A stretch of 64,000 bases of DNA from positions 30,232 through 94,231 of the IMG/VR virus record IMGVR_UViG_3300021976_000006; one strand, 5' to 3'. This document shows, piece after piece, positions 1,371 to 46,111 of the stretch (positions are counted from its first letter, which is position 1; each line of letters opens with the position of its first letter). The notes beneath the pieces are model-generated. The model saw only the letters and a list, made by a program, of their open reading frames with translations, ran no database searches and was not told the DNA's origin. This DNA comes from a virus. The position numbers and the translations under genes were made by a program.

Positions 1371-4300
1371 TTATCTTTGAGATAATTTGTAAATTGAGTT
1401 TACAAAGTTAACAATAATTTTGGACATTACCAAACTTTTATAGCTAAATCTTACAATTAAATACTTATCTCTTAATTTAGCTAACTTATACCATGGTTTG
1501 TTATAATCAATTGCTAATGGATTAACTACTTTATCCACATAATAATTATTTTTTATATCATTCCAACTTTTAGAAAATAAAGGTTTAATTGATTGTTCTT
1601 TACTTCTGTCAAAAAACTTATTAATATTCCAATCTTTTTCTTTTCTAGTAAGATTAGTACCATTTAAAGTTATAACATCTGTACACTGTTGATCATTATA
1701 TAATAATACAGTATCAAAGAAATCATTAAGTCTTTGTTCACCTAAAAATGATTCAGCATTAATATTTAATGAATCTGTTACTTTAGTATATAAAGGATTC
1801 TCATTAAATACAGTTTCTATAATAAACTCAGTATCATAACCTTCCCCATTAGATTTTAATAAATCATTATCATAATTATATGTTAAGAAATCTGTATTAT
1901 GAGAAATATACAATCTTGGTATATAACCATGATAACTTATCCATTTCTTAGAAATAGGATCATAAGATACTGTAAAAGATTTATTCTCAAATACATCAGG
2001 ATTATTATAATCTAGTTTAACACCATTTCTATAAATATACCCATTAACAAATGTTAAAGTACCAGTAGTATCAATAAGTTCAAAGTCTTTCTTAGTAACT
2101 ATTAATCTTTTTAATTCAGGATCAAAAGTAGCAATAATACCTATATCATTAATAGGATTATCAAAACCATTCTCTAACTCTAATTGAGGAAATTGTTTAT
2201 AAATATCTAATTTAAAATATTCATTTAATCCTAGTATATTAATATCTTCTAATTGCTCATTAAATAAGAAACATTTATTCTTATGTCTGTCTACAAATAA
2301 GTATCCATATGGACTCTCTACAAGACTAAATTTAGAAGTAGTTCCACCATATCCACCATCAATAGATATTAGCTCTGTAGGCTCTATACTAAGGAATTCA
2401 CCAGTACCTACAACTATATTATCAGCATTTTCAGATTTAATAGTCTGATTAGATGCAAATACATCATATAGACTATCTCTAGTAATAGTATATAGTTTAT
2501 CTTGTCTAGTAAAGAATATAGTAATAGGTCCTCTATTAAGAGGTAAATCTCTATAATTATTAGCTCTTGATATTCTATAGTTATCTATTTTATCTTCTAA
2601 ACTCTGTTTGTCAGAATATATAATTCTAGTCGAGTATCTTATACCATCATTTAATAATCCAAAATCAGCTAGCTCTGTAGAATTAGCAAAATAGTATTTT
2701 ATATAATGATTATTATAAGGAATTTCTATCTTATAAAACTCTTTACGTAAATTAGCTGTAGTATAACTTTCAAAAGTACTGTCTATTAAATAAGATTTAG
2801 GAAAGTATTTCTCATCAAGAGTAGAACCTTCTCTACGCATTCTAATATTAATATCAGTTTCACACATAAATGAACCAAATGTGGTAGCTCCCCATTCAAA
2901 TACTTGTACTACTCCTCCTGGAGCAGAATCTTTAATATTAATAGCATTAATTGTTGAACTAATAGGAATAGCTTCTCCCCAAGTTTTCTTATAATGATGC
3001 ATATCAATATATGTATCACCATTTCTACAGAATACTTCCATAATACCAAATGAGAAATTTCTTGCAGCTCCTATTTCTACATATTCTAAATCTTGTACTT
3101 GACCATATAAACTGTCGTTATTATTTATAACAGATATATAATAAGCAGTGTCATAACAAGATTTATCTTGCCATCTTGGATCAACACCATCTGCAAATTT
3201 TAATCCATCCATAGTTATAGTAGCAGAATTAGATCCTGCTGGATAATCTAAGTCAGAATAGTAATCTGCTAATAATGTAGGATCGCCAATAGGTTTTATA
3301 TCTAATGTTGATAATACAGGTAATTGTAATAAAGCAGTATCTTGACTTTGCCTAAAGTTTAAAGCAATACCTTCACTAGTTCCTACGAAGTTATTATCAA
3401 TATATATAATTTTATCTATATCTCTACTATAAATTTCATCTTTAGGAACAGCTCTTTTTAAGTACGGTATAGCAGAGTTCATTATCTTTTGCTTTCTACC
3501 AGATTCATCAGATGCTGTATTATTATAATAATAAATATAATGTGCATGAGTAGGATCAGCAGCTCTTTTATAACCTATATAATTTATAAATCCTTTATCT
3601 AATCCACAAACTTTTAATTTATATCCTGATATATTAGCTTGTTTAAATTTAAAAGCTACTTCAGGAGAAATAAATTCAAATTGTCTAGCACCAGATTGAG
3701 TTCCACCACTAGCTTGTTGAGTCTGTTCTATAGGACTAAATGAATCATTTTGATCAGTACCTTGTAATAGACCTTTAGCTAATATATTTTTATTAGACTC
3801 ATTTCTAGGAGTCATAAATATTTTAATCTTTTTAATTAGATCTCCATATTCAGCAGGTATAACTATATTTTCAAAAGATAGTTGAATACACCATTTAGTT
3901 AATTGATAATCAGTAGCTGTATTAATAGCGTTTTCATCACCTCCAACTATTGTAGTATATAAAGGATGTAATATATCAGAAGGCATCTTATGATGTCTTA
4001 TATAAGATTTACCATTAGAATCTTGTTCTCCATTAATAGGATAACCAAATCCATCAGGATACACTTCATTACTTCTCCAATAAGATAAATATCCTGTATC
4101 AGTAGCAGTATTTCGATCTCTCCACCAAGTGTTACCATCAGGAGATATACCGGTATCCCATCCACCACCAGGAACATATACTCTTCCATACTCTCCTAGT
4201 TTTGTACCTAAACCTGGAATTACATCGGGTAATCTTCCTGGAATATGAAATACTTCAGTTTCTGTACCATCTTTTAATTCAAACCCTACTCCAAATGAAT

Positions 4301-7507: not shown

Positions 7508-8077
7508 TTATATAGCTCTTTTAAAATATTTTTTACTAATATAGTAAAATACTCCTAGTACTCCAGTAGCAGATAGTATATACCATAGTATATTAACTGG
7601 TTCTTTCTGTTTGACAGAGTTCTTAGCTACAATAGCTTTCTTACCAGTTGAATCTTGTTTAGAATCTTTTGTTGTTTTAATATTATTTTTAATAGTGGTT
7701 TCTTTATCTAATTTAAAATTAATACCTTGAGATTTAACTTCTACTTCAGTTTTTAAAGAACCTCTTAAACTATCATAAGTTTGTCTAATATTAACAAAGT
7801 CATTATTAATTAAAGTTAAATTTTTAATATCACTAAGATTTTTAACAGGAATACTAGATTTATCTTTTTTGGGTTTTGTATATATAGTACTATCTGCTTT
7901 CTCTTTAATAGTAGTTACAGAGCTGTCACTAGAGACAACCTTTTCTTCTTTATGAGTAGTTGACTCAGATTGTTCTTTATACTTGTTAGAACTCTTAAAA
8001 ACCTTATTAAATACACCACAACTCGATAGAGTTGTAGCTATTAATAATATTGGTATAAACTTACTTAGCTTTATCAT
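7508..8077 (-). CDS. Lipoprotein, probable unimolecular spanin
   Basis: N-terminal lipobox (TTLSSC), S/T/K-rich middle, C-terminal TM helix (ILWYILSATGVLGVFYYI) followed by basic residues; downstream of the endolysin. Confidence 0.6.
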   Translation of the reverse strand: MIKLSKFIPILLIATTLSSCGVFNKVFKSSNKYKEQSESTTHKEEKVVSSDSSVTTIKEKADSTIYTKPKKDKSSIPVKNLSDIKNLTLINNDFVNIRQTYDSLRGSLKTEVEVKSQGINFKLDKETTIKNNIKTTKDSKQDSTGKKAIVAKNSVKQKEPVNILWYILSATGVLGVFYYISKKYFKRAI

Positions 8078-8267
8078 TATTTTTACTTTTTAATTCTGAA
8101 AATATACTATCCAGTTTTTCTACACGATCAGCTATAGGATCTATATTTATTGAGTCTTCTGTTACAACTACATGAATTTTTCTTTCAGGAATACCCTCAG
8201 CTTTATTACTGAGAGTTGTTCCTGATAAAACTATGGTCATAAATATTAATATACATGCATATTTCAT
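8061..8267 (-). CDS. Small membrane/secreted lysis-cassette protein
   Basis: N-terminal hydrophobic segment; lies between holin-like and spanin-like genes. Confidence 0.4.
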   Translation of the reverse strand: MKYACILIFMTIVLSGTTLSNKAEGIPERKIHVVVTEDSINIDPIADRVEKLDSIFSELKSKNNDKAK

Positions 8268-8572
8268 TATTTTTTGTCCTTTTTAATATCTTTAATAGTT
8301 TGACTTGCATTATTTATTAATGTATCTAATCTAGGTAACTGATTATTAACCCTATTTTGAGTTTCTTCCATCTTTTCTACTAATTTATCTTGAGAGGCTT
8401 TTATTTCAGAAATCATTGCTTTATTTAACTCTCTTTCAGTATTTCTACCATCTATAAATAAATATCCGGTAGTAAAAGTAGTCACTATACACCACATTAC
8501 TAATGTTTGTTTACCTACGAGATCAGCTAACTTCGTTAAAGCAGTTACTTTCTCTTCTACATTTTCTAGCAT
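8267..8572 (-). CDS. Holin-like membrane protein
   Basis: One TM segment plus coiled-coil C-terminus, directly downstream of the endolysin. Confidence 0.45.
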   Translation of the reverse strand: MLENVEEKVTALTKLADLVGKQTLVMWCIVTTFTTGYLFIDGRNTERELNKAMISEIKASQDKLVEKMEETQNRVNNQLPRLDTLINNASQTIKDIKKDKK

Positions 8573-8606
8573 TCATAATTATATTTTTTGGGTTTAAAAA
8601 TATTTG

Positions 8607-9074
8607 TTATATTAAGACATAACCATCTTTATCTACTTTACCTGCATTATATAATGCTAATAATTGTTTAACTGTATATCCAAAACTCATTTCAAAATGA
8701 GGATAATCTTTTATACTATTAAAATCTCCACCCCATTTAAATCCATATTTCTTAAATACTTCTACTACCTTTAACCAATTCTTATCTACTTTCCAATCTA
8801 TTTTACCATTAATTTGATTAGCAAAATCAATTGCCATTGCATAATTATGATATGAAGATCCGCCTTTAGCATTAGTTACTATTGATCCAGGTTTGGTTCT
8901 ACCTTGAGCATATAAAGCATCTGATCTTTCAAATGATCTTAATGTTTCAGTAATAAATGGGTGAACACCAATAGGCGTTACTTTTACTGCTTCTCTATAA
9001 GCTGCTATTGCTTTATCTCTTAACTTAGGATGTAACTTTTGAAGTCTTCCTATTGATATTAAATCTTCTGCCAT
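8607..9074 (-). CDS. Endolysin, M15 family L-Ala-D-Glu peptidase
   Basis: LYAQGRT, SYHNYAMAID, WGGDF...DYPHFE motifs. Confidence 0.9.
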   Translation of the reverse strand: MAEDLISIGRLQKLHPKLRDKAIAAYREAVKVTPIGVHPFITETLRSFERSDALYAQGRTKPGSIVTNAKGGSSYHNYAMAIDFANQINGKIDWKVDKNWLKVVEVFKKYGFKWGGDFNSIKDYPHFEMSFGYTVKQLLALYNAGKVDKDGYVLI

Positions 9075-35992: not shown

Positions 35993-36247
35993 ATGAAAAA
36001 GATAATAATACCAAATATAACTGGCGATGAAATACCTATTGAAAACATTAAAAAACGTGATAAAATATTAGTTAAAGACAGAAGTAATAATATACTTGGT
36101 ATAGTTGCAATTATTGAAGATGGTAGTGGTGATGATTATTTTAAAATTATACAGTTTAATGGTAAACATAGTGATCAACATTCTAAAACATTAAATCAAT
36201 TAATGATACTTTACAACAATTATAATTTCTATTTATTAGAAGAATAA
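35993..36247 (+). CDS. Hypothetical protein
   Basis: ORF track. Confidence 0.45.
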   Translation: MKKIIIPNITGDEIPIENIKKRDKILVKDRSNNILGIVAIIEDGSGDDYFKIIQFNGKHSDQHSKTLNQLMILYNNYNFYLLEE

Positions 36248-36254
36248 CCATTAA

Positions 36255-37077
36255 TTTCTCAACAAGTTTATGACTTCTGTATATATTGATTAAATATAAT
36301 AGCTTCAGGGCTATCACCTATTGATATATACGCATAGATTTACATAAATGGCACGGCAAAACCAGTTGAAATTTAATACCAATATATCTGCTAAGAAGTA
36401 TATTATTTATAGTATATAAGCTGTAAATTGAGAAAATAGGCGTAAAATATAATAAAAGAATGGTAAATTGAGTAGTGGTATTTATATCATGAACATATGA
36501 AAACAGAGTAACTATTATATTACTACCTAGAAGTAAGATTTAAGAATGAGGATTCAACTTCCTCTATATTGGCAAAAATAAATATCTATCCAACAAAATA
36601 TGTTATAACATAGCAGGTAGTTTACTACAATTTACACAAGTTCCCCAGCTAATAGAATAATTTTGTAGTTAAAATCTATTGGGTAAAGGAAATTCAAGGT
36701 GCAACCTTGTAGATATTTATTTAAAAACATTAACCAATTAATCTGTGCAATAGGAGATAATCAGTGGGCACTGTTCTCTATCTACAGTGGGATGGGCTTA
36801 CCACACCTAATTGGTTAAAAAAAACATAATAGACTTCCTGCTCGATGCAGATAAATGAGAGGGGATTCTAACTCATAAGCTAATCCAATAGCTGTTGTCT
36901 GACTAGAGATAGTGGAGAGAAGACCCTTAAATGTCATAATAACATTTGACATCTATTCCTTTGGAAAGACAGGAAGTTTATTTAAAAATACTAATTTCAT
37001 AGTTAGTTAAGTTTAGGGTTAAATAGTAAGGTGTACTCCCGGAGAGATTAAATGTCATAAAGCAGCCTTACTATTTA
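36255..37077 (+). ncRNA. Tandem cluster of about six structured RNA modules
   Basis: No ORF of 60 aa or more for ~840 nt. Consecutive closing stems at 36255/36435, 36576/36722, 36730/36818, 36828/36982 and 37020/37077, plus a tRNA-like T-arm at 36548-36564. Confidence 0.6.
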
Positions 37078-37497
37078 TTAAATCAAAGAAATGAAACTAC
37101 CAAGAAAATTAAAGAAGAAGTTTTACAAGATAAGACTTCATCGCTACAAATTATATTTGCAACAAGATTTTAATTGGATATTTAAAAGAAGAATGGTTAT
37201 TGTATATAATTATGTATTAGCCAATATTCCAATTAAATTATCTAATAATGATTTAATATTTATAAAAAATGGTTTATTAAGTAGTCCTAAATTTAAAAAA
37301 GATGTATAAAATAACAATTGAAATAAATATGTGGAGCAACTATGTTGTTACTTTACACAGAAGATTTTTATTTATCTATTGGAGATTAGGTGAATATATT
37401 ACTCCTAACGAAAGTAGAATGAAAGGTCAAATCTTTCAATGGATGAATAAATATAAAATATCATCAGAAAAAGTAATTTACTTAAACAATAATTAAT

Positions 37498-37725
37498 ATG
37501 AAAACAATTTATAAGAAATTAATACTATTAGTAGTATTATTAGCTTTAATATCAGCAATATTATATGGTGCTGGTGCGGGTAGTAATGGTTTATTATCAA
37601 TAGCTAAATGGAGTGAAGAATCAAGAGCTTGCTTAATGGGTTTTTGGGCAGTATTTGCATTAATATCTGTAATAGTTGCTTTAACAATAGATAATGATGG
37701 TATTAATACTATAATGGGTGATTAA
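37498..37725 (+). CDS. Small membrane protein (2 TM)
   Basis: Two hydrophobic segments. Confidence 0.5.
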   Translation: MKTIYKKLILLVVLLALISAILYGAGAGSNGLLSIAKWSEESRACLMGFWAVFALISVIVALTIDNDGINTIMGD

Positions 37726-37899
37726 TTATGCCAATAATATTAAGATTATGTATAGTACTATTAATATTATTTACATTATTATTTTCAGCAATTGAGCTAA
37801 TATTATTTATACCAATATATTTATTTACTGGTAAAATGTTTATAACAGCATCATATGTTGATGAACTATTAAAAAGAATAAGAAAAAATTTAAAAAACT

Positions 37900-38643
37900 A
37901 TGAATAAAATAACCACAAGGTGGAGTATACTAGGTATATTTCTACTATCTTTAGTATTCTTTAATACTAATGCACAGGATAAACATATTATTGAAAAATT
38001 AGATGGTACAAAAGTAGTTGTAACTACATTAAATAGTTATGATAAAACTGTAGCTCAAGTATCAAATGGTGTAGGAACTGTTTATGATGATTTAAAATCA
38101 GCTGCACCTAAAGTAGGTGATGCTATTAAAAGTCTCTCTAAAGAGCTTAAAGTAGGTGCTAATAAAGTATGGGATGTGTTAGTTAAACAACAACTTGTTT
38201 GGTCTGTTGCATTTTTACTATTAACATTAACATCAATAACCAATTGGTATATATTTTATAAGCGTAATTTTCCTAAACTCAATAAAGATTCATTTATTAT
38301 GGGTAAAAGAGATAATTATGTTAATATACCTAATCCAGAATTTAGTCAAAATTGGTATGATATATGGTCAGGTGATAATAGTAATTATAATGCTGATAAG
38401 AAAAGAGATATTCGATACCAAAAAACTATTAGAGTATTAGAAGGTCAAATTGATATTGTATTACCCAAACCAGATTTATCAAAAGAATACGGTATGAGTG
38501 GATTTAAATATTTACATCTTGTAATTTGTATTTTATTATCATTGCTATCTTTTTATCATTTTAATGATATGTTAACAGGTTTTATGAATCCGGAGTTTGG
38601 TGCGATGAAAACTATTGCAGAGATTGCATCTCAAATTAAATAA
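37900..38643 (+). CDS. Membrane protein with signal peptide
   Basis: N-terminal signal (…NTNAQ) plus two TM segments. Confidence 0.55.
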   Translation: MNKITTRWSILGIFLLSLVFFNTNAQDKHIIEKLDGTKVVVTTLNSYDKTVAQVSNGVGTVYDDLKSAAPKVGDAIKSLSKELKVGANKVWDVLVKQQLVWSVAFLLLTLTSITNWYIFYKRNFPKLNKDSFIMGKRDNYVNIPNPEFSQNWYDIWSGDNSNYNADKKRDIRYQKTIRVLEGQIDIVLPKPDLSKEYGMSGFKYLHLVICILLSLLSFYHFNDMLTGFMNPEFGAMKTIAEIASQIK

Positions 38644-39259
38644 TTATGTTGTTTGCAATATTAAAAGTTCTAATATTCTCCTTATTAGGAGGATTTATAG
38701 GACAACTAATTTTCAGACATAGATCTGATTGTGCTTATGAAATATTCAGAGAAATATTTGAAATTAGTTTAATCATTACAGGAGTTTTTACAATATTAAT
38801 TATATTATCTTTATTTATAAATATATAACCATGGCAGTGATTTTAACAATACACGGAAAAGACGAAACAAAGCAAGTAACTAAAATGACTAATGTTGTTT
38901 TGTTAGATCATAAGAATAAACCATTATCTACTGATAAATGGTTAGAGAAGTTATATGAAATAGCTTCAACAATTGCAGGTAAAAATTACAGAGGTCATAA
39001 ATTTGAAATAACATGATATTAATAATTGTACTACTCGTAATACTTTCTACTATAATAGATTGTATAATTTATTATTCATTAGAAAAACCATTCAGAGAAC
39101 CATGGATGTTAGTTCCATATTCTTGTTTACTTTATACATCTATAATAGTAATTTTATTATTATGGTGGAGATTTAAATATCCATTAAGGAAATAGAAGAA
39201 GAGGGGTTTTTTGTTTAAAGTTTTGTTTATCCTTAAAATAAATCAAAACTTATTAAACT

Positions 39260-39629
39260 GGGGGTGCCTGGTTTTGACATTTAGTGATTATTATATTTTC
39301 AGCGGTTGGAAGCTTATATACAACCTTAAAATTTTAAGTAAACAATAACAGGCAAAACAATTAAATTGTCAGAAACAACTTTCAACGATATAATGCGTCA
39401 AGTATCTAACGTTGAATTAGAAATGGCTGCGTAAGCAATCATTAGATTAGGATATTAAGGGATTTTTAACCTTCAACTTAAAATTCCATCATTTTCCCAA
39501 TTTAGATTAGTGTAAATTGGATAACTTTTTCTAGGTTTTTTGAATAAAAATCTAGTTATTTTGTTAAAAGCTGTAACAAGAGATATAGTATTTTTTAGAT
39601 GGACAAGGGTTCGACTCCCTTCACCTCCA
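39260..39629 (+). ncRNA. ssrA: tmRNA
   Basis: 5' GGGGGTG pairs with 3' CACCTCC-A, including the G3.U70 Ala determinant. 5' ...TGGTTTTGAC and 3' GGAC-AAGGG-TTCGACT-CCCTT T-arm are present. Internal tag ORF 39351-39434 ends ...LEMAA*. Confidence 0.92.
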
Positions 39630-39808
39630 CGTAATACCCTGATTATCAATTAATTAGATAATATTCTACACGTTTGATTAGCGTTGGGATAAATAAATCG
39701 ATCTGCTTGTAGGCTCAAGGTAACCTTCAATAAATAATACAGGTGACACGTAGTCTTTGTACTCTCGGGAGTAACTGTATTATTATTTTAAACTTAAATT
39801 AAATAATT

Positions 39809-40285
39809 ATGAAAAAGAAATTAGAATTAGATGATCAAACTGCAAGATCAATATATAAAATAGCAGATATAGCAACTAAATTAGTATTAGAATCTAACTG
39901 GGGAAAAGAATTTTTTAGTGAAAAATTATCTGATAGAATTAAATCGTATGTAGATGTTTGTAAAGAATTATGTAGACCTATTTTAACAATAAAAGATTTT
40001 AAATTTTTACCTGAAAATCAAAGAGCTAAAGCTTTAGCAAATCACCAATGGGAAAATATTAGTGAATTATTTAACCAAGGATGGAAACCAGATTTTACAA
40101 ATATAAATCAAGCTAAATATTATGTTTGGTATGAAAGAAAATCTACTGGTTGGGTGGTGTGCTACTTCAGCGATCGGGGCTACTATTCTATCTGTGGGTC
40201 TGGTTTTTACTTTAAAGATTCAGAAACAGCTTTATATGTAGCTAATACATTTTTACCAATAATGACCATTATTTTAGAACCATAG
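39809..40285 (+). CDS. DGR target protein 1 (158 aa)
   Basis: Contains VR1 (40146-40211), matching TR1 except at adenines. Confidence 0.9.
   Translation: MKKKLELDDQTARSIYKIADIATKLVLESNWGKEFFSEKLSDRIKSYVDVCKELCRPILTIKDFKFLPENQRAKALANHQWENISELFNQGWKPDFTNINQAKYYVWYERKSTGWVVCYFSDRGYYSICGSGFYFKDSETALYVANTFLPIMTIILEP
40146..40211 (+). repeat. DGR variable repeat VR1
   Basis: 66-nt match to 40315-40380; 17 mismatches, 16 of them at template A. Confidence 0.93.
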
Positions 40286-40314
40286 GGTTACATATTTTAC
40301 TTATAGTTTTATAT

Positions 40315-40380
40315 CTAGTTAGGTAGTGAACTACTACAACAATCAGAACTACAATTCTAACTATGAGTCTAGTTTCTACT
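40315..40380 (+). repeat. DGR template repeat TR1
   Basis: Intergenic, AAC/AAT/TAC-rich copy of VR1 upstream of the RT. Confidence 0.93.
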
Positions 40381-40482
40381 CAATAATAAATACTAATATG
40401 AACCTCACCTCTTGGTGAAAAAAAGCGAAATCCAGAAAAGACATTAGTATATTAATAGAAAATGTCTTATGTTGAGTAAAAA

Positions 40483-41439
40483 ATGAAAAGAATAAATAAC
40501 CTCTATAATGATATTTGTAGTATTAATAATCTTATTCTAGCTGATAAAAAAGCTAGAATAGGAAAGTTAAAACAACTAGATATTATAAAACACGATAAAG
40601 CAAAAGGATGTAATATTTTAAAACTTCATAATATATTAATGGAGGAAAAATATAAAACATCTAAATATCATATATTTACTATATATGAAGGTAAGAAAAG
40701 AGAAATATATAAATTACCATATTATCCTGATAGAATAGTTCATCATGCTATTATGAATAAACTTGAATCTATTTTTGTATCTATATTTATTTCTAATACA
40801 TTTAATTGTATTAAAAATAGAGGAATAATGGGAGCTTATAAAGCTGTTAAAAAATCATTATTAGATATAGAAAATACTCAATATTGTTTAAAATTAGATA
40901 TAAGAAAATTTTATCCTAATATTAATAATAATATTTTAAAACTATTATTAAGAAAAAAGTTCAAAGATGAAAAATTACTAAAATTATTAGATGAAATTAT
41001 TAATAGTACAAAAGGACTACCAATTGGAAATTATTTAAGTCAATATTTTGCTAATTTTTATTTAACATATTTTGATCATTGGTTAAAAGAAATTAAAGGT
41101 GTTAAATATTATTTTAGATATTGTGATGATTTAGTTATATTATCTAGTAATAAGGAATATTTACATTTGCTATTTTTAGATATTCAAGATTATTTATCAA
41201 ATATATTAAAATTAGAAATTAAAAAAAACTATCAAATATTTCCAGTTAATATAAGAGGTATTGATTTTGTTGGTTATAAATTTTATCATAAATATATTTT
41301 ACTTAGAAAATCTATAAAGAAAAGATTCATTAAAGTTGCAAAATATAGTAAAGCTATACAATCATTAGCTGCTTATTTTGGATGGTTAAAATATTGTAAT
41401 AGCATAAACTTAAGAAATAAATATTTAAAAGATGAATAA
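40483..41439 (+). CDS. DGR-type reverse transcriptase
   Basis: YYPDRIVHHA, LKLDIRKFY, GLPIGNYLSQ (SQ signature of DGR RTs), YFRYCDD, GIDFVGY; 318 aa with no maturase, endonuclease or RNase H domain. Confidence 0.95.
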   Translation: MKRINNLYNDICSINNLILADKKARIGKLKQLDIIKHDKAKGCNILKLHNILMEEKYKTSKYHIFTIYEGKKREIYKLPYYPDRIVHHAIMNKLESIFVSIFISNTFNCIKNRGIMGAYKAVKKSLLDIENTQYCLKLDIRKFYPNINNNILKLLLRKKFKDEKLLKLLDEIINSTKGLPIGNYLSQYFANFYLTYFDHWLKEIKGVKYYFRYCDDLVILSSNKEYLHLLFLDIQDYLSNILKLEIKKNYQIFPVNIRGIDFVGYKFYHKYILLRKSIKKRFIKVAKYSKAIQSLAAYFGWLKYCNSINLRNKYLKDE

Positions 41440-41827
41440 GAAAGAAGCAGAAAAAGCTTTAAATAAGCTACAATTAGAAGTTAATAAACTCAGAGATATA
41501 ATAGATGCTCCTGAAAGTTTATTTGATATTACTACATATACAGAAGTATGTAAAAGATTAAATATTACAGAGAAGTCTTTAAGTGAATTTGAAACTCTTA
41601 AAGAGTATAGATACCATCAGATATTAAATATTCAGAAATTATTCAATGAAGATGCTGTAAATCCTAGATGGTATCCTTGGTTCTCTAGAACTGGTTCTGG
41701 TCTGGTTTTCTTCATTTCTTCCTGCTTCAGTGACTGCTACTATGGGCAGGTTGCTTACTTCAAAGATAAAAAAACCTCTGATTATATAGGTAAGACATTT
41801 AAATTTATCTATAACGATTTAAAATAA
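41432..41827 (+). CDS. DGR target protein 2 (131 aa), paralog of target 1
   Basis: Overlaps the RT stop; contains VR2; shares Y..VCK.L...F....HQ..NI..LFN....Y.W(F/Y)...YFKD..T..Y...TF..I with target 1. Confidence 0.9.
   Translation: MNKKEAEKALNKLQLEVNKLRDIIDAPESLFDITTYTEVCKRLNITEKSLSEFETLKEYRYHQILNIQKLFNEDAVNPRWYPWFSRTGSGLVFFISSCFSDCYYGQVAYFKDKKTSDYIGKTFKFIYNDLK
41689..41756 (+). repeat. DGR variable repeat VR2
   Basis: 68-nt match to 41846-41913; all 18 mismatches at template A. Confidence 0.93.
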
Positions 41828-41845
41828 TAATATAGGTCAATATTA

Positions 41846-41913
41846 AACTAGTTCTAGTCTAGTTTTCAACAATTCTAACTACAACAATGACAACTACAAT
41901 GAGCAAGTTACTT
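41846..41913 (+). repeat. DGR template repeat TR2
   Basis: Intergenic A-rich copy of VR2, distinct in sequence from TR1. Confidence 0.93.
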
Positions 41914-42041
41914 TTACTTTAACAATATTGATGTTGACCATAGCTCTTGCTAAAAAAATAAAATTAATAAAAAAGTCTTTAGTAATATTTATGAAAGAGA
42001 CTTATAAAAGTAAAATTAATATTAAAAACCTAAATTAAATA

Positions 42042-42530
42042 ATGAAGAAATTACTATACTTTGCTTATGGTAGCAATTTACTAAGTGCTAGATTAAGAGC
42101 TAGAATTGGTAGTGCTATCCATTTTAAGAACTATCGACTCAAAGACTATAAACTAACATTTGATTGTCAAGGATATGCTAATATACAAAGATCTATTGGA
42201 GATCATGTAGAAGGATGTTTATACAGTGTATCAGGTGAAGAATTAGCAATGTTAAATCAATATGAAGCTTTATATCATGCAGAGTTCTTTGAGTATGATT
42301 CTGATACTATAATTGCTATTTATATTGGTAATTATGAACCTGTTAAACACTCAAGAGTACATAATTTAGCTCCAATGAGAGCATACTTAGAAATTGTTAT
42401 GTTAGGTATGTTAGAGAAAGGATTAAAGCTATCTCATGACAAAGTTAAAAGGATTTATGATTCATTACCATTAGAAAGAGTTCATATTAAGTCTAACAGA
42501 AAAGCTAAACGCTTTAGAAAAAGAAAATAA
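42042..42530 (+). CDS. Gamma-glutamylcyclotransferase (AIG2/GGCT-like)
   Basis: YFAYGSNL...ANI...VEGCLY...LNQYE. Confidence 0.85.
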   Translation: MKKLLYFAYGSNLLSARLRARIGSAIHFKNYRLKDYKLTFDCQGYANIQRSIGDHVEGCLYSVSGEELAMLNQYEALYHAEFFEYDSDTIIAIYIGNYEPVKHSRVHNLAPMRAYLEIVMLGMLEKGLKLSHDKVKRIYDSLPLERVHIKSNRKAKRFRKRK

Positions 42531-42642
42531 CCAGTAAAATGTGCCTTTTTAAGGTAGAGGAACAATAACGTATTTGAGTAGCCAAAAGCTAATGTCAAAT
42601 GGAACAACCTCATAGCTTCATTTAGTTATCAATTTACACCCA

Positions 42643-42750
42643 GGTAGGATAGTATAAATTATATATAAAATACTTTGATATTTTATATATTTCTGGAATT
42701 ACGATAGGCTCGTTGTCTTATTGATGGTGATTCGAGTTCACCTCCTACAA
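42643..42750 (+). ncRNA. tRNA-like element / pseudo-tRNA
   Basis: GTAGGA/TCCTAC acceptor, canonical T-arm GGTGA-TTCGAGT-TCACC, 8-nt anticodon-like loop, ~30-nt hairpin inserted in the D-loop. Confidence 0.5.
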
Positions 42751-42889
42751 CAAAGTAGTAATACTTAGTAAGTTGATTATCTGATCTTACTTTAAATAAA
42801 ACAGGTTGTGGTTAAGTGATGAAAGATTTGTGAAATAAATGGTTAACTGGTAGGTAGTTTTTATCTACCAGTTATTTAAAATAAAAAAT

Positions 42890-43591
42890 ATGTACAATTT
42901 AGATACAAATATATTAGGTTTATTGAATAAGCCTGATAGTGAAGAGAAAGTTAAGGAACTATTGTCAGATTGGACATCCCAATTAGCAGATAGAACAATT
43001 AGATTTAGAAAAGATCAATCTCCTAGAAGTTTTAAAGATTTATTATATAAATTCTTTTACGAAAAAATACCTACTTATGAAGGTAGATCAAAACAATGTG
43101 ATCAAGGTAGAAGAAGAAGTTTAATAGATTTCTTTATGTTACAAAAGCATTATTTAGTTAAACCATTATCTATAGAAGAATGTTATGATATATATTTTAA
43201 TAGACTTAATAGAAGTGTAGATGATTATGCTAAAAGGCTAAAAACAATGGCTTACGGTGATATATATATACAAAACTCAATAATGAGAGAATTAACTCAT
43301 TATTATTGTCCTACTGTAAAGAGAAATGTATTTATTAAACATGTTCCTTATGAACCAATATTCTATGATGAAAATTATAGAAGAATAATTAAAGAAGACA
43401 CTAGAACTATTGATCAAAAATATAAAGATGACAAATTAGATCAATTTGATAAATATGACGCTAAAATAACTAGTGATAGAAGAAAAGTATCAGAAGTTAT
43501 ATCAGATACTATTGAAATAACCAAAGAGAAAATTGGTAAAATAAATATTAAAATGGCTACTAGACTACCTATGTTTAGTAATAACACTTGA
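42890..43591 (+). CDS. Hypothetical protein (paralog of 46111-46599)
   Basis: Shares FF...TY...C....RRS..D and YC....K.V motifs. Confidence 0.55.
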   Translation: MYNLDTNILGLLNKPDSEEKVKELLSDWTSQLADRTIRFRKDQSPRSFKDLLYKFFYEKIPTYEGRSKQCDQGRRRSLIDFFMLQKHYLVKPLSIEECYDIYFNRLNRSVDDYAKRLKTMAYGDIYIQNSIMRELTHYYCPTVKRNVFIKHVPYEPIFYDENYRRIIKEDTRTIDQKYKDDKLDQFDKYDAKITSDRRKVSEVISDTIEITKEKIGKINIKMATRLPMFSNNT

Positions 43592-43680
43592 AGAGATACA
43601 AATCCTAGATTTACTAATAAATCAAAAGGATTTAAAACATATAATAGAAAAATTATTAAATAATAAACTTAAAACTAATT

Positions 43681-44826
43681 ATGAAACAGTATAAATTAAT
43701 AAAAGAATATCCCGGATCTCTTAAATTAAATGTAAAAATACATAGAAACTTTGAAACAGGTTATGGATATAGCTGGGTTGGTGGAGGTATTATACATGGA
43801 GGATTAACAGATGAACATGTATATAATAATCCAGAATTTTGGGAGGAAATAGTTGAAAAAGATTATGAAGTATTAGCTATAATAGGAAATACATCTGGTA
43901 TAATTTACAATTTAGATGGTAATAAATTCATTGATAAAGATGGATATAAAATAACTAATTTTCCACATAATAATAGTGGTTGTAAAATTCTTACTGTAAA
44001 ACGCTTATATGATAATCAAATATTTATAGTGGGAGATGATATTCTTGAACAAAATGAACATTCTAAAATAGAATATTTTGAATTAAGAGGAGATGATTTA
44101 GTTTTAAGAATTAATCATCAGGTAACCAAAGGATCATCAACTATTGATATTAATAGTAAATTTGAGAAATATGTTCCTAAAGATTATGAGATATTATCTT
44201 TTAGAGATAAAAATGGTACTGGTATTTTTAAATCAGCATTAGTAATTAGAACCTCTAAAAATTTATTTGGTTGGGAATTTAACCAAACTGCTGGATATAG
44301 TACTGAAGAAGATATGTTATTAACTATTGAACAAAATGTATTTGAAATTCATTCAGTAAAAAGATTATCAGACGGAGAAGTATTTACTATCGGTGATAAG
44401 ATAGAAAATATAAAATATGATACTGTTCGAGGAAATATAAACAAAATAATATTAGAAGATGGTTATATTCAAATATGGTATAAATGTAATACAAATTCAT
44501 TTGATAGATTAGAAAATATATATATAATTACAAATCCATTATTCAAAACAGAAGACGGTGTTGATATATTTGTAGGTGATACTATTTATTGTGTATCTCT
44601 TTATTCATTTGCTTTATGGAATGGAAAAATGAGTACAACTAATTATAGAACTTATTATCATAAGAGAAATAAAACGTTTTCAACTAAAGAAGCAGCGGAA
44701 GAATATATTATAATGAATAAACCTTGTTTATCTTTAGAAGATGTGTATGGATGTACAGAAACACATTCTATGACACTTGCTGCATGTACTTTAACAAAAT
44801 TAGTAAAATCAAGAATATGCCAATAG
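43681..44826 (+). CDS. Hypothetical protein with internal domain duplication
   Basis: KDYE(V/I)L and VKRL.D...F.(V/I)GD each occur twice. Confidence 0.6.
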   Translation: MKQYKLIKEYPGSLKLNVKIHRNFETGYGYSWVGGGIIHGGLTDEHVYNNPEFWEEIVEKDYEVLAIIGNTSGIIYNLDGNKFIDKDGYKITNFPHNNSGCKILTVKRLYDNQIFIVGDDILEQNEHSKIEYFELRGDDLVLRINHQVTKGSSTIDINSKFEKYVPKDYEILSFRDKNGTGIFKSALVIRTSKNLFGWEFNQTAGYSTEEDMLLTIEQNVFEIHSVKRLSDGEVFTIGDKIENIKYDTVRGNINKIILEDGYIQIWYKCNTNSFDRLENIYIITNPLFKTEDGVDIFVGDTIYCVSLYSFALWNGKMSTTNYRTYYHKRNKTFSTKEAAEEYIIMNKPCLSLEDVYGCTETHSMTLAACTLTKLVKSRICQ

Positions 44827-45247
44827 AATTAATAATACTTATTACTTATATTATAATAGCAATAATAGCAGCAGCTATAGCAAATGTATATTTTCCTTTT
44901 AATCAAGGAGATAATCCACCAGAATTTATTTTTGGAATGCTTTGGCCATTAGTTATAGTAATATTTACAGTTCATTTACCTTATAAATATTTAGTAATTT
45001 TAATACAAAACCTTAAAAATCATGTTAATACCAAAGAATAACTATTTAAAAAATGTATCAACATTCTTTATTGAATTGTTGAATTTTACTATGATGATAT
45101 TCATAGTTTTTGTGTCAATTATATTATCTTCATTGGTAATAGAATTTGCAAAGTTTCAAGAAGTTTGGGCTAATTTATTCATAATGGTAGGTACATTAGT
45201 ATTTGCATTAAGATTAACTTATTTTCTAAAGATTAAATCACAATTAG

Positions 45248-45628
45248 ATGAAATCACTTGAAATAACGAATAACCAAAAATTGATGATTCTGGAAATGGC
45301 TAAAAAGTTGTTTCCAGAATTTGATATTTTATTTAATCAAGTGGGTTTTGAAGATTATGTGTTTTTTGATATAAAAGATGAACAATCTGATAATTTATTT
45401 AGGATTATTGATAGTAATCATCCTATACAAAAAGAAGAATGTAGAATTCATTGGTTTGAATTTTGTATGGTACATTTACCTGAAAGATTCTATCCAAAAT
45501 ATGACACATTTATAAATGGTACAGGAGCCGATTTTTCTGAAGATCATTTTGCAGAATGTATTATACGCAAATTAGAACACCCTGTAGAATATATTTATAA
45601 ACAATTTAAAAATATGTATTCAAAATGA
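45248..45628 (+). CDS. Hypothetical protein
   Basis: ORF track, coupled to neighbours. Confidence 0.5.
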   Translation: MKSLEITNNQKLMILEMAKKLFPEFDILFNQVGFEDYVFFDIKDEQSDNLFRIIDSNHPIQKEECRIHWFEFCMVHLPERFYPKYDTFINGTGADFSEDHFAECIIRKLEHPVEYIYKQFKNMYSK

Positions 45629-45793
45629 TTGGTATAATTAGTAAAGCAGTTAAACCAGAAGAGGCGTTAAAGATGATAAATAGATTTATATCATCATCCT
45701 TATTTGGTGAGGCCTCTACTAAAGAAAAAGAATTATTAGTAAGAATAAAACAAGAGTTAAAAAAACAAATAAATAATAAACTAAAACTTTCAA

Positions 45794-46111
45794 ATGATGA
45801 ATAATCAAGAAAAAAAACCATTGTATTTCTATGGTCAAAAACCATATACTGTAACTAAAAATAATAAAAAAGAGAAAATTGTTCGTCGTTTTGCATTAGC
45901 TGGTCTAATTGGTAATGATGGCATAATTAGTATTGGTAAAGCTGTATGTTCTGAAAAGGACATATTTACAAAGAAAAAAGCAAGAGCTATTGCTACTGGT
46001 AGAGCTGGTAAAAAACAAAAGCAAGAAGGCTTGTTAAAAGTAAAAGAAGGAGAAACTCCTGGTGCTAGTTTTGTAAATTATGCTAAAAAATATCAAAAAG
46101 AGGAGGAATAG
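45794..46111 (+). CDS. Conserved phage protein
   Basis: G.AVCS..D.F.KK.AR.IA..RA pattern seen in many phage small proteins. Confidence 0.55.
   Translation: MMNNQEKKPLYFYGQKPYTVTKNNKKEKIVRRFALAGLIGNDGIISIGKAVCSEKDIFTKKKARAIATGRAGKKQKQEGLLKVKEGETPGASFVNYAKKYQKEEE

Follow-up and report, generated by a model that had tools for sequence, protein, structure and literature searches.

A diversity-generating retroelement of two complete cassettes around one reverse transcriptase in a soil crAss-like phage

Introduction

One template repeat (TR) per reverse transcriptase (RT) is the textbook arrangement of a diversity-generating retroelement (DGR). What, then, is to be made of a locus in which a single RT gene stands between two different TRs, each with a variable repeat (VR) and a target gene of its own? 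The locus that raises this question lies in IMG/VR record IMGVR_UViG_3300021976_000006, the 94,231-bp genome of a soil crAss-like phage that CheckV rates as 100% complete; the window analysed here is the 64,000-nt stretch formed by bases 30232-94231 of that record, and positions are given in window coordinates. We report that the element is a DGR of two complete cassettes around one RT and that, judged by sequence comparison, both cassettes are quite likely to be functional templates for this RT.

Results and discussion

Two TR/VR pairs and a single reverse transcriptase

A preliminary description of this DNA had proposed the order target 1 with VR1, TR1, RT, target 2 with VR2, TR2, and every one of these parts is present in its place. 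The features, with the scores of the covariance model R1 introduced below, are as follows.

39809 to 40285, plus strand: target 1 gene, an open reading frame (ORF) of 158 aa in which VR1 occupies codons 113-135; phrog_11581 (unknown function), E 3.6e-12
40146 to 40211, plus strand: VR1, with 16 adenine-specific differences and one C>T relative to TR1
40315 to 40380, plus strand: TR1, a non-coding template with an in-frame TAG opposite a TGG of VR1
40391 to 40484, plus strand: handle (spacer) RNA 1, between TR1 and the RT start codon; R1 48.2 bits, E 2.7e-10
40483 to 41439, plus strand: DGR-type RT, 318 aa; PF00078 (RVT_1), E 1.7e-14; phrog_1423, E 7e-99
41432 to 41827, plus strand: target 2 gene, 131 aa, a paralog of target 1, in which VR2 occupies codons 86-109
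41688 to 41756, plus strand: VR2, with 18-19 differences from TR2, every one at a TR adenine
41845 to 41913, plus strand: TR2, a non-coding template beginning 18 nt past the target 2 stop
41926 to 42018, plus strand: handle (spacer) RNA 2, the second copy, with no RT gene after it; R1 42.0 bits, E 1.2e-8

Both TRs are intergenic and both VRs lie in the 3' part of coding targets; in each cassette the cognate TR lies downstream of the VR at a distance of 100-105 nt and has a structured RNA of about 95 nt directly 3' of it. Pair 1 differs at 17 of 66 positions, 16 of them at TR adenines (of 23 available; 12 A>G and 4 A>T) and the remaining one a C>T. Pair 2, aligned over VR2 41689-41756 and TR2 41846-41913, differs at 18 of 68 positions, all 18 at TR adenines (of 26); lengthening it by one base 5' gains a 19th mismatch. 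By the hypergeometric distribution, chance would restrict the differences to adenines in this way with a probability of 4e-9 in pair 1 and 1e-10 in pair 2. The TR adenines fall mostly at codon positions 1 and 2, in AAC and AAT codons of the kind that is typical of DGR templates, and they permit about 9e12 peptide variants from TR1 and 3e14 from TR2. Beyond the final adenine difference, VR and TR stay alike for a few bases and then diverge; at these 3' ends, in a region of 25% GC, no GC-rich initiation of mutagenic homing (IMH) sequence like that of Bordetella phage BPP-1 is evident.

A diagonal scanner for which TR adenines count as wildcards identifies just these two TR/VR pairs in positions 36000-46000, both strands included, and when the whole 94,231-bp genome is scanned each TR matches its own VR alone. 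The two templates are distantly related (62% identical in a gapped alignment) and, as had been proposed, do not account for each other's VR: cross-pairing leaves no fewer than 22 of the 42-43 non-A positions mismatched.

The RT ORF is intact and its translation contains GNYLSQ, of the GxxxSQ type, and YCDD. The 94-kb genome holds one PF00078 match, and thus no second DGR RT that might serve TR2; the preliminary description had named the presence of such a second RT as fatal to its reading. None of the DGR-specific NCBIfam models scores above its cut-off for this RT.

Each template is followed by a structured RNA of the same family

The 100-130 nt 3' of TR1 and 3' of TR2 are homologous to one another. 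Copy 1 matches the Rfam motif RT-18 (RF03021) at 40406-40482 with 44.6 bits, above the gathering score of 41.3, and the two copies can both be aligned with the consensus of RT-18 and RT-17, which runs through a hairpin, an A-run and a UAGUA...GAAA stem. Motifs RT-1 to RT-19 were described by Weinberg et al. 2017 near RT genes, most of them without an assigned function (PMC5737381).

Covariation was evaluated on alignment A6, which spans the region before the RT start in 35 related single-TR loci; it contains no twin locus and so avoids circularity. Three helices were set by hand from this alignment and then tested, and the covariance model R1 was built from it. In the helices 87.7% of cells are paired, compared with 35-49% when the partners are slid; cells with a double change number 88 versus 22 in shuffles, and compensatory change is present in 11 of the 13 pairs. 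RNAalifold run on a wide alignment, A5, predicted six pairs and no more. Over the 94-kb genome R1 gives exactly two matches, each directly 3' of a TR. As a specificity control, 80 related IMG/VR loci (590 kb) yielded 81 matches at E <= 0.001: one abutting the RT start in every locus (80/80), and a sole extra match in locus L040, which also has two TRs. Stem changes between the two copies of the window are themselves compensatory, with CACC/GGTG in copy 1 versus TAGC/GCTA in copy 2, and GACATT/AATGTC versus GTCTTT/AAAGAGAC.

Processive cDNA synthesis that is specific to the DGR RNA depends, in the Bordetella phage element, on noncoding sequence downstream of the TR (PMC6182149). By analogy, we infer that the structured RNA 3' of each TR may be a handle for RT recognition and priming on the template. 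A second functional template would require a full handle of its own, and one stands behind TR2.

The twin layout is inherited in one RT lineage

Hundreds of relatives of the window RT, at 56-67% identity, are present in IMG/VR and in JGI metagenomes, and 154 loci fetched from these sources were scanned. The usual design in this family is a single TR about 100-180 nt upstream of the RT, with either 1-3 tandem small paralogous targets or one target of about 440 aa upstream. Looking for the twin layout in related genomes, a check that had been suggested at the outset, turned up seven further loci with two pairs and one RT, six of them arranged like the window and one (L171) with its two cassettes in tandem upstream of the RT. 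The eight two-pair loci are the window, L040, L120, L168, L169, L170, L171 and L175/L176, the last two counted once. In the window, L040, L120, L168, L170 and L175/L176 the cassettes flank the RT and each handle lies directly 3' of a TR; in L169 the downstream cassette is present and the RT is cut by the contig end. Both pairs of L040 are clean, and L170 lies on a 94,209-bp contig with an RT 67% identical to that of the window.

The pairs of the multi-TR loci carry 11-23 adenine mismatches each, and in 15 of 17 the core is without any non-A mismatch; for the upstream pairs this holds in all eight loci. Every multi-TR locus has two handle RNAs. On a FastTree phylogeny of 128 RTs, the seven multi-TR RTs cluster in one group (Shimodaira-Hasegawa-like support 86), which also takes in one RT whose contig is too short to judge. 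The multi-TR trait requires at most two label changes on this tree, and the starred branches are compatible with a single origin. The layout persists across RT divergence to 51-69% identity and target divergence to about 40%. One RT clade with a layout conserved despite such divergence indicates that the twin layout is an inherited feature of the lineage.

Other arrangements occur among the relatives. In the sister group, L014 (5307-5397), L016 and L028 (5307-5397) have a target downstream of the RT that is served by the single upstream TR, with one handle RNA, a state that may be ancestral to the twin layout. L087, a close relative with a TR1-like sequence, has a target, a clean TR/VR pair and a handle RNA at 8039-8726 on the minus strand, with no RT in 11.6 kb; L172 has a cassette with a clean pair and a handle at 2700-3513, and only a 32-residue remnant of an RT. 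The pairs of these two loci have 16-18 adenine differences. Three candidates were dismissed: in L091 an AT-rich direct repeat mimics a second 'TR', in L094 the additional pair sets VR against VR, and a 1.6-kb 'pair' in L170 consists of two real pairs sharing one diagonal.

Two further regularities concern the templates themselves. In-frame stops (TAG, TAA, TGA) occur in TR1 of the window (40320-40322) and in both TR1 and TR2 of L040, and the VRs have Trp or Phe codons at these places; copying those adenines without mutation would cut the target short. Across 159 pairs (loci L006-L167 and the window), a TR adenine that precedes G corresponds to a VR G in 86% of 486 cases, compared with 14-35% for an adenine before A, C or T. 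This bias could reflect selection for Gly and Trp codons (AGT>GGT, TAG>TGG) or context-dependent misincorporation.

In a relative, the downstream template has been used recently in nature

Loci L175 and L176, from different metagenome data sets, align without gaps over 6321 nt and differ at 25 positions. Of these differences, fifteen are clustered in a 44-nt part of the downstream VR, where 13 coincide with adenines of the downstream TR; TR1, TR2 and the upstream VR are identical. Differences placed at TR2 adenines in this manner indicate that the template behind the RT gene has been used recently in nature. Two Logan orthologs of target 2, P0002 and P0003, show 9 differences among the 25 residues of their VR block and 4 among the 91 residues elsewhere; P0002-P0005 are 50-60% identical to target 2.

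Proposed mechanism

Together, these results suggest a scheme in which the RT copies either TR RNA, misincorporating at adenines, and each cDNA replaces its cognate VR only. The TRs differ too much for a cDNA to home to the non-cognate VR. Two paralogous proteins of the early region would in this way draw on separate libraries of about 1e13-1e14 peptide variants each. Inferred parts of this scheme are activity of both cassettes here, priming by way of the handle, and action in trans.

The preliminary description had spoken of one RT serving two independent template RNAs. The separate TR sequences, the single RT, the two handles and the RT clade bear this out as far as the templates are concerned; their independence as transcripts does not follow. 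The start codon of target 2 and the stop codon of the RT overlap at 41432-41439 (ATGAATAA), so that transcription of the RT may extend into target 2 and TR2, with both TRs perhaps on one long RNA. A scan for sigma-70 promoters and terminators over 39200-42600 gave 26 candidates versus 25.2 in shuffles, i.e. no excess. The further claim, that two paralogs diversify from separate libraries, gains support from the comparison with relatives and from the rewriting of a downstream VR; the contigs of this phage itself, variant-free and uninformative as discussed below, add nothing to it.

A broader idea, which we put forward tentatively as a plausible but doubtful extension, is that the portable unit is target plus TR plus handle, that the RT recognises an RT-18-like handle in trans, and that the cargo is a non-lectin early scaffold which diversifies intracellular binders for host takeover or anti-defence. 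Portable cassettes of this sort could be duplicated and set on either side of the RT (the window, L040, L120, L168, L170, L175), placed in tandem (L171), or found without an adjacent intact RT (L087, L172).

Alternative explanations

Several observations weigh against two functional templates. The one C>T of pair 1 (TR 40376, VR 40207) is a non-adenine change, and the in-frame TAG of TR1 at 40320-40322 faces TGG in VR1 (40151-40153), so unmutated copying would cut target 1 short. The upstream VR is unchanged between L175 and L176, leaving the upstream cassette without equally direct evidence of activity. Handle copy 2 matches RT-18 (41941-42013) with 27.9 bits and E 0.033, under the gathering score. 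An Avd gene is common in DGRs, if not universal, and the whole 94-kb genome has no PF05635 match at E <= 1, which makes the likeness to BPP-1 priming incomplete. Finally, Logan contigs from the probable source soil sample (7-10x) are variant-free in both VRs; contigs drop rare variants, so this result is uninformative and no sign that the VRs are invariant. One way to read the first three of these points is that a single cassette is active and the other, more likely cassette 1, is a fossil of past retrohoming. Such decay has precedent in the decaying extra TR-VR pairs of Zeta crAss-like phages (PMC12386605), and cassettes that lack an intact adjacent RT do occur, in L087 and L172. The C>T, however, stands five bases from the repeat's 3' end, in the short stretch beyond the last adenine difference in which VR and TR usually part (IMH versus IMH*); the cores of the upstream pairs are free of non-A mismatches in all eight multi-TR loci; and handle RNA 1, which would belong to the fossil, has the higher score of the two and exceeds the Rfam threshold. 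The TAG/TGG position also recurs in L040, and L087 has A-to-G changes at the same DNA position, a recurrence that points to a selected feature and not to decay. We consider a fossil cassette unlikely.

The variant-free contigs and the missing Avd would also fit an element that is wholly silent now, with an RT that merely looks intact and VR/TR patterns that are historical. This seems to us improbable, given the intact RT ORF with its catalytic motifs, the recent rewriting in a relative of the same layout (L175/L176), the inability of contigs to reveal minor variants, and the 61-69 nt cores that lack any non-A mismatch though the paralogs are at 33% identity. Least probable of all, and scarcely to be expected, is that TR2 is served by another RT, that of the host or of a co-infecting element; a host-encoded RT is compatible with the phage genome data, and nothing supports it positively. 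Handle RNA 2 belongs to the RNA family that adjoins this RT family in 80 of 80 relatives, the twin layout is co-inherited with one RT clade, and the single PF00078 match comes from a genome rated 100% complete. Templates in both cassettes that work with the one RT thus remain the reading that we favour.

The targets are small paralogous proteins

Targets 1 and 2 are paralogs with 33% identity (E 1e-10), and neither has a sequence match in Pfam, NCBIfam or the PDB; their good matches are uncharacterised phage proteins only, some of them from crAss-like viruses. An AlphaFold2 model of target 1, computed from an alignment of 77 family members, reached a predicted local distance difference test (pLDDT) score of 90.8 and has a helical N-terminal part, a short beta hairpin bearing the VR, and then two helices. 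Foldseek against the PDB returned nothing below E 3 for this model, and in a wide fold search with VIA-align the best Z was 4.6, with no lectin among the best 50 matches. The position of the targets in the early/replication arm, unlike that of the annotated tail proteins beside described crAss-like DGR RTs, suggests that they are probably not virion receptor-binding proteins.

Small targets of 120-185 aa form a large family in L006-L167, in tandem arrays of 1-3 genes and without a Pfam family, with the motif W.PDW...Q.KYYPWF...SGFGFS...VGSRLCF. The large targets of about 440 aa that accompany the same RT family end in GSRLCF, as the small ones do.

Genomic setting

The major head protein of the phage is 45-50% identical to Crassvirales counterparts. 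Public runs that contain the stretch come from one soil metagenome alone (two runs, one sample). GC content is 25-34%. Genes for terminase, portal and major head protein are on the minus-strand arm (1 to about 32000), and DNA polymerase and metabolic genes on the plus-strand arm; the DGR is about 8 kb inside this (early/replication) arm, where its neighbours are small genes of unknown function and a transfer-messenger RNA (tmRNA) gene lies just ahead of it. The tmRNA gene, at 39260-39632 on the plus strand, is about 180 nt upstream of target 1 and matches RF00023 with 58.7 bits (gathering score 47); the tag that ARAGORN predicts has 27 residues and ends in AA. Directly 3' of handle RNA 2, at 42042-42530 on the plus strand, is a gamma-glutamyl cyclotransferase-like gene (PF06094, E 3e-7), and glutamine amidotransferase-like genes occur farther along the plus-strand arm.

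Significance

A role for the handle RNA would assign a function to the orphan Rfam motif RT-18 and probably to RT-17 also, since both copies align to RT-17. The mechanism of DGRs is known chiefly from one single-template element, and the twin lineage offers a natural experiment on what the RT requires of its RNA. For multiplexed targeted mutagenesis, it also points to a compact design that dispenses with Avd. Small targets of the early arm without a recognisable lectin fold would widen the range of phage proteins under hypermutation.

Comparison with known systems

The BPP-1 DGR (mtd-VR, TR, spacer RNA, avd, brt) and the element described here share adenine-specific transfer from TR to VR, a target that carries its VR at the 3' end, a structured noncoding stretch that comes after the TR and abuts the RT gene, and an RT with GxxxSQ and YxDD motifs. 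They differ in that BPP-1 has one TR and the window two, each with its own handle RNA; in that the window has no Avd gene; in that the BPP-1 target is a C-type-lectin tail fibre and those of the window are proteins of 131-158 aa encoded in the early/replication arm; and in the RNA itself, RT-10 in BPP-1 (PMC5737381) and of the RT-18/RT-17 type here.

The DGRs of described human-gut crAss-like phages (LMMB, cr60_1, cr56_1 and others) have RT genes 66-71% identical in nucleotide sequence to the window RT over part of its length, a target-TR-RT order and no annotated Avd. By annotation, cr60_1, cr56_1 and LMMB are unlike the window: the gene immediately upstream of the RT is a single large tail or tail-fibre gene, and it belongs to the structural module. 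The single-TR multi-target relatives (L006, L022, L014, L028) belong to the same RT family at 56-67% identity and likewise have small paralogous targets and a handle RNA; one TR serves all of their VRs, the downstream one included, and a single handle is present, whereas the downstream target of the window clade has a TR and a handle of its own.

Elements with more than one TR have been recorded before. A full-text literature search on two template repeats gave no match, and the passages searched in Wu 2018, Roux 2021 and Paul 2015 contain no discussion of multi-TR elements. A figure in a 2019 survey, however, gives two TRs and six VRs for the DGR of Stenotrophomonas sp. SKA14 (PMC6642488), and the Zeta crAss-like phages Lera and ct1yV3 possess three TR-VR pairs, two of which in Lera carry 3 and 10 non-A substitutions and were suggested to have decayed (PMC12386605). 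The category of one RT with several templates is therefore not new; surveys had already counted the layout. These earlier cases and ours have in common one RT locus with several distinct TRs and their cognate VRs. They are known as counts or at the level of figures, whereas in the window the pairs are clean, each TR has its own covarying handle, the layout defines a clade, and rewriting of a second VR is seen between near-identical genomes of window-type relatives. What is new here is a second template with its own covarying handle, the identity of that handle as an RT-18-type motif for which no role had been assigned before, a modular cassette that can flank the RT on either side or stand in tandem, a design that marks a clade, and a downstream template that is used in nature.

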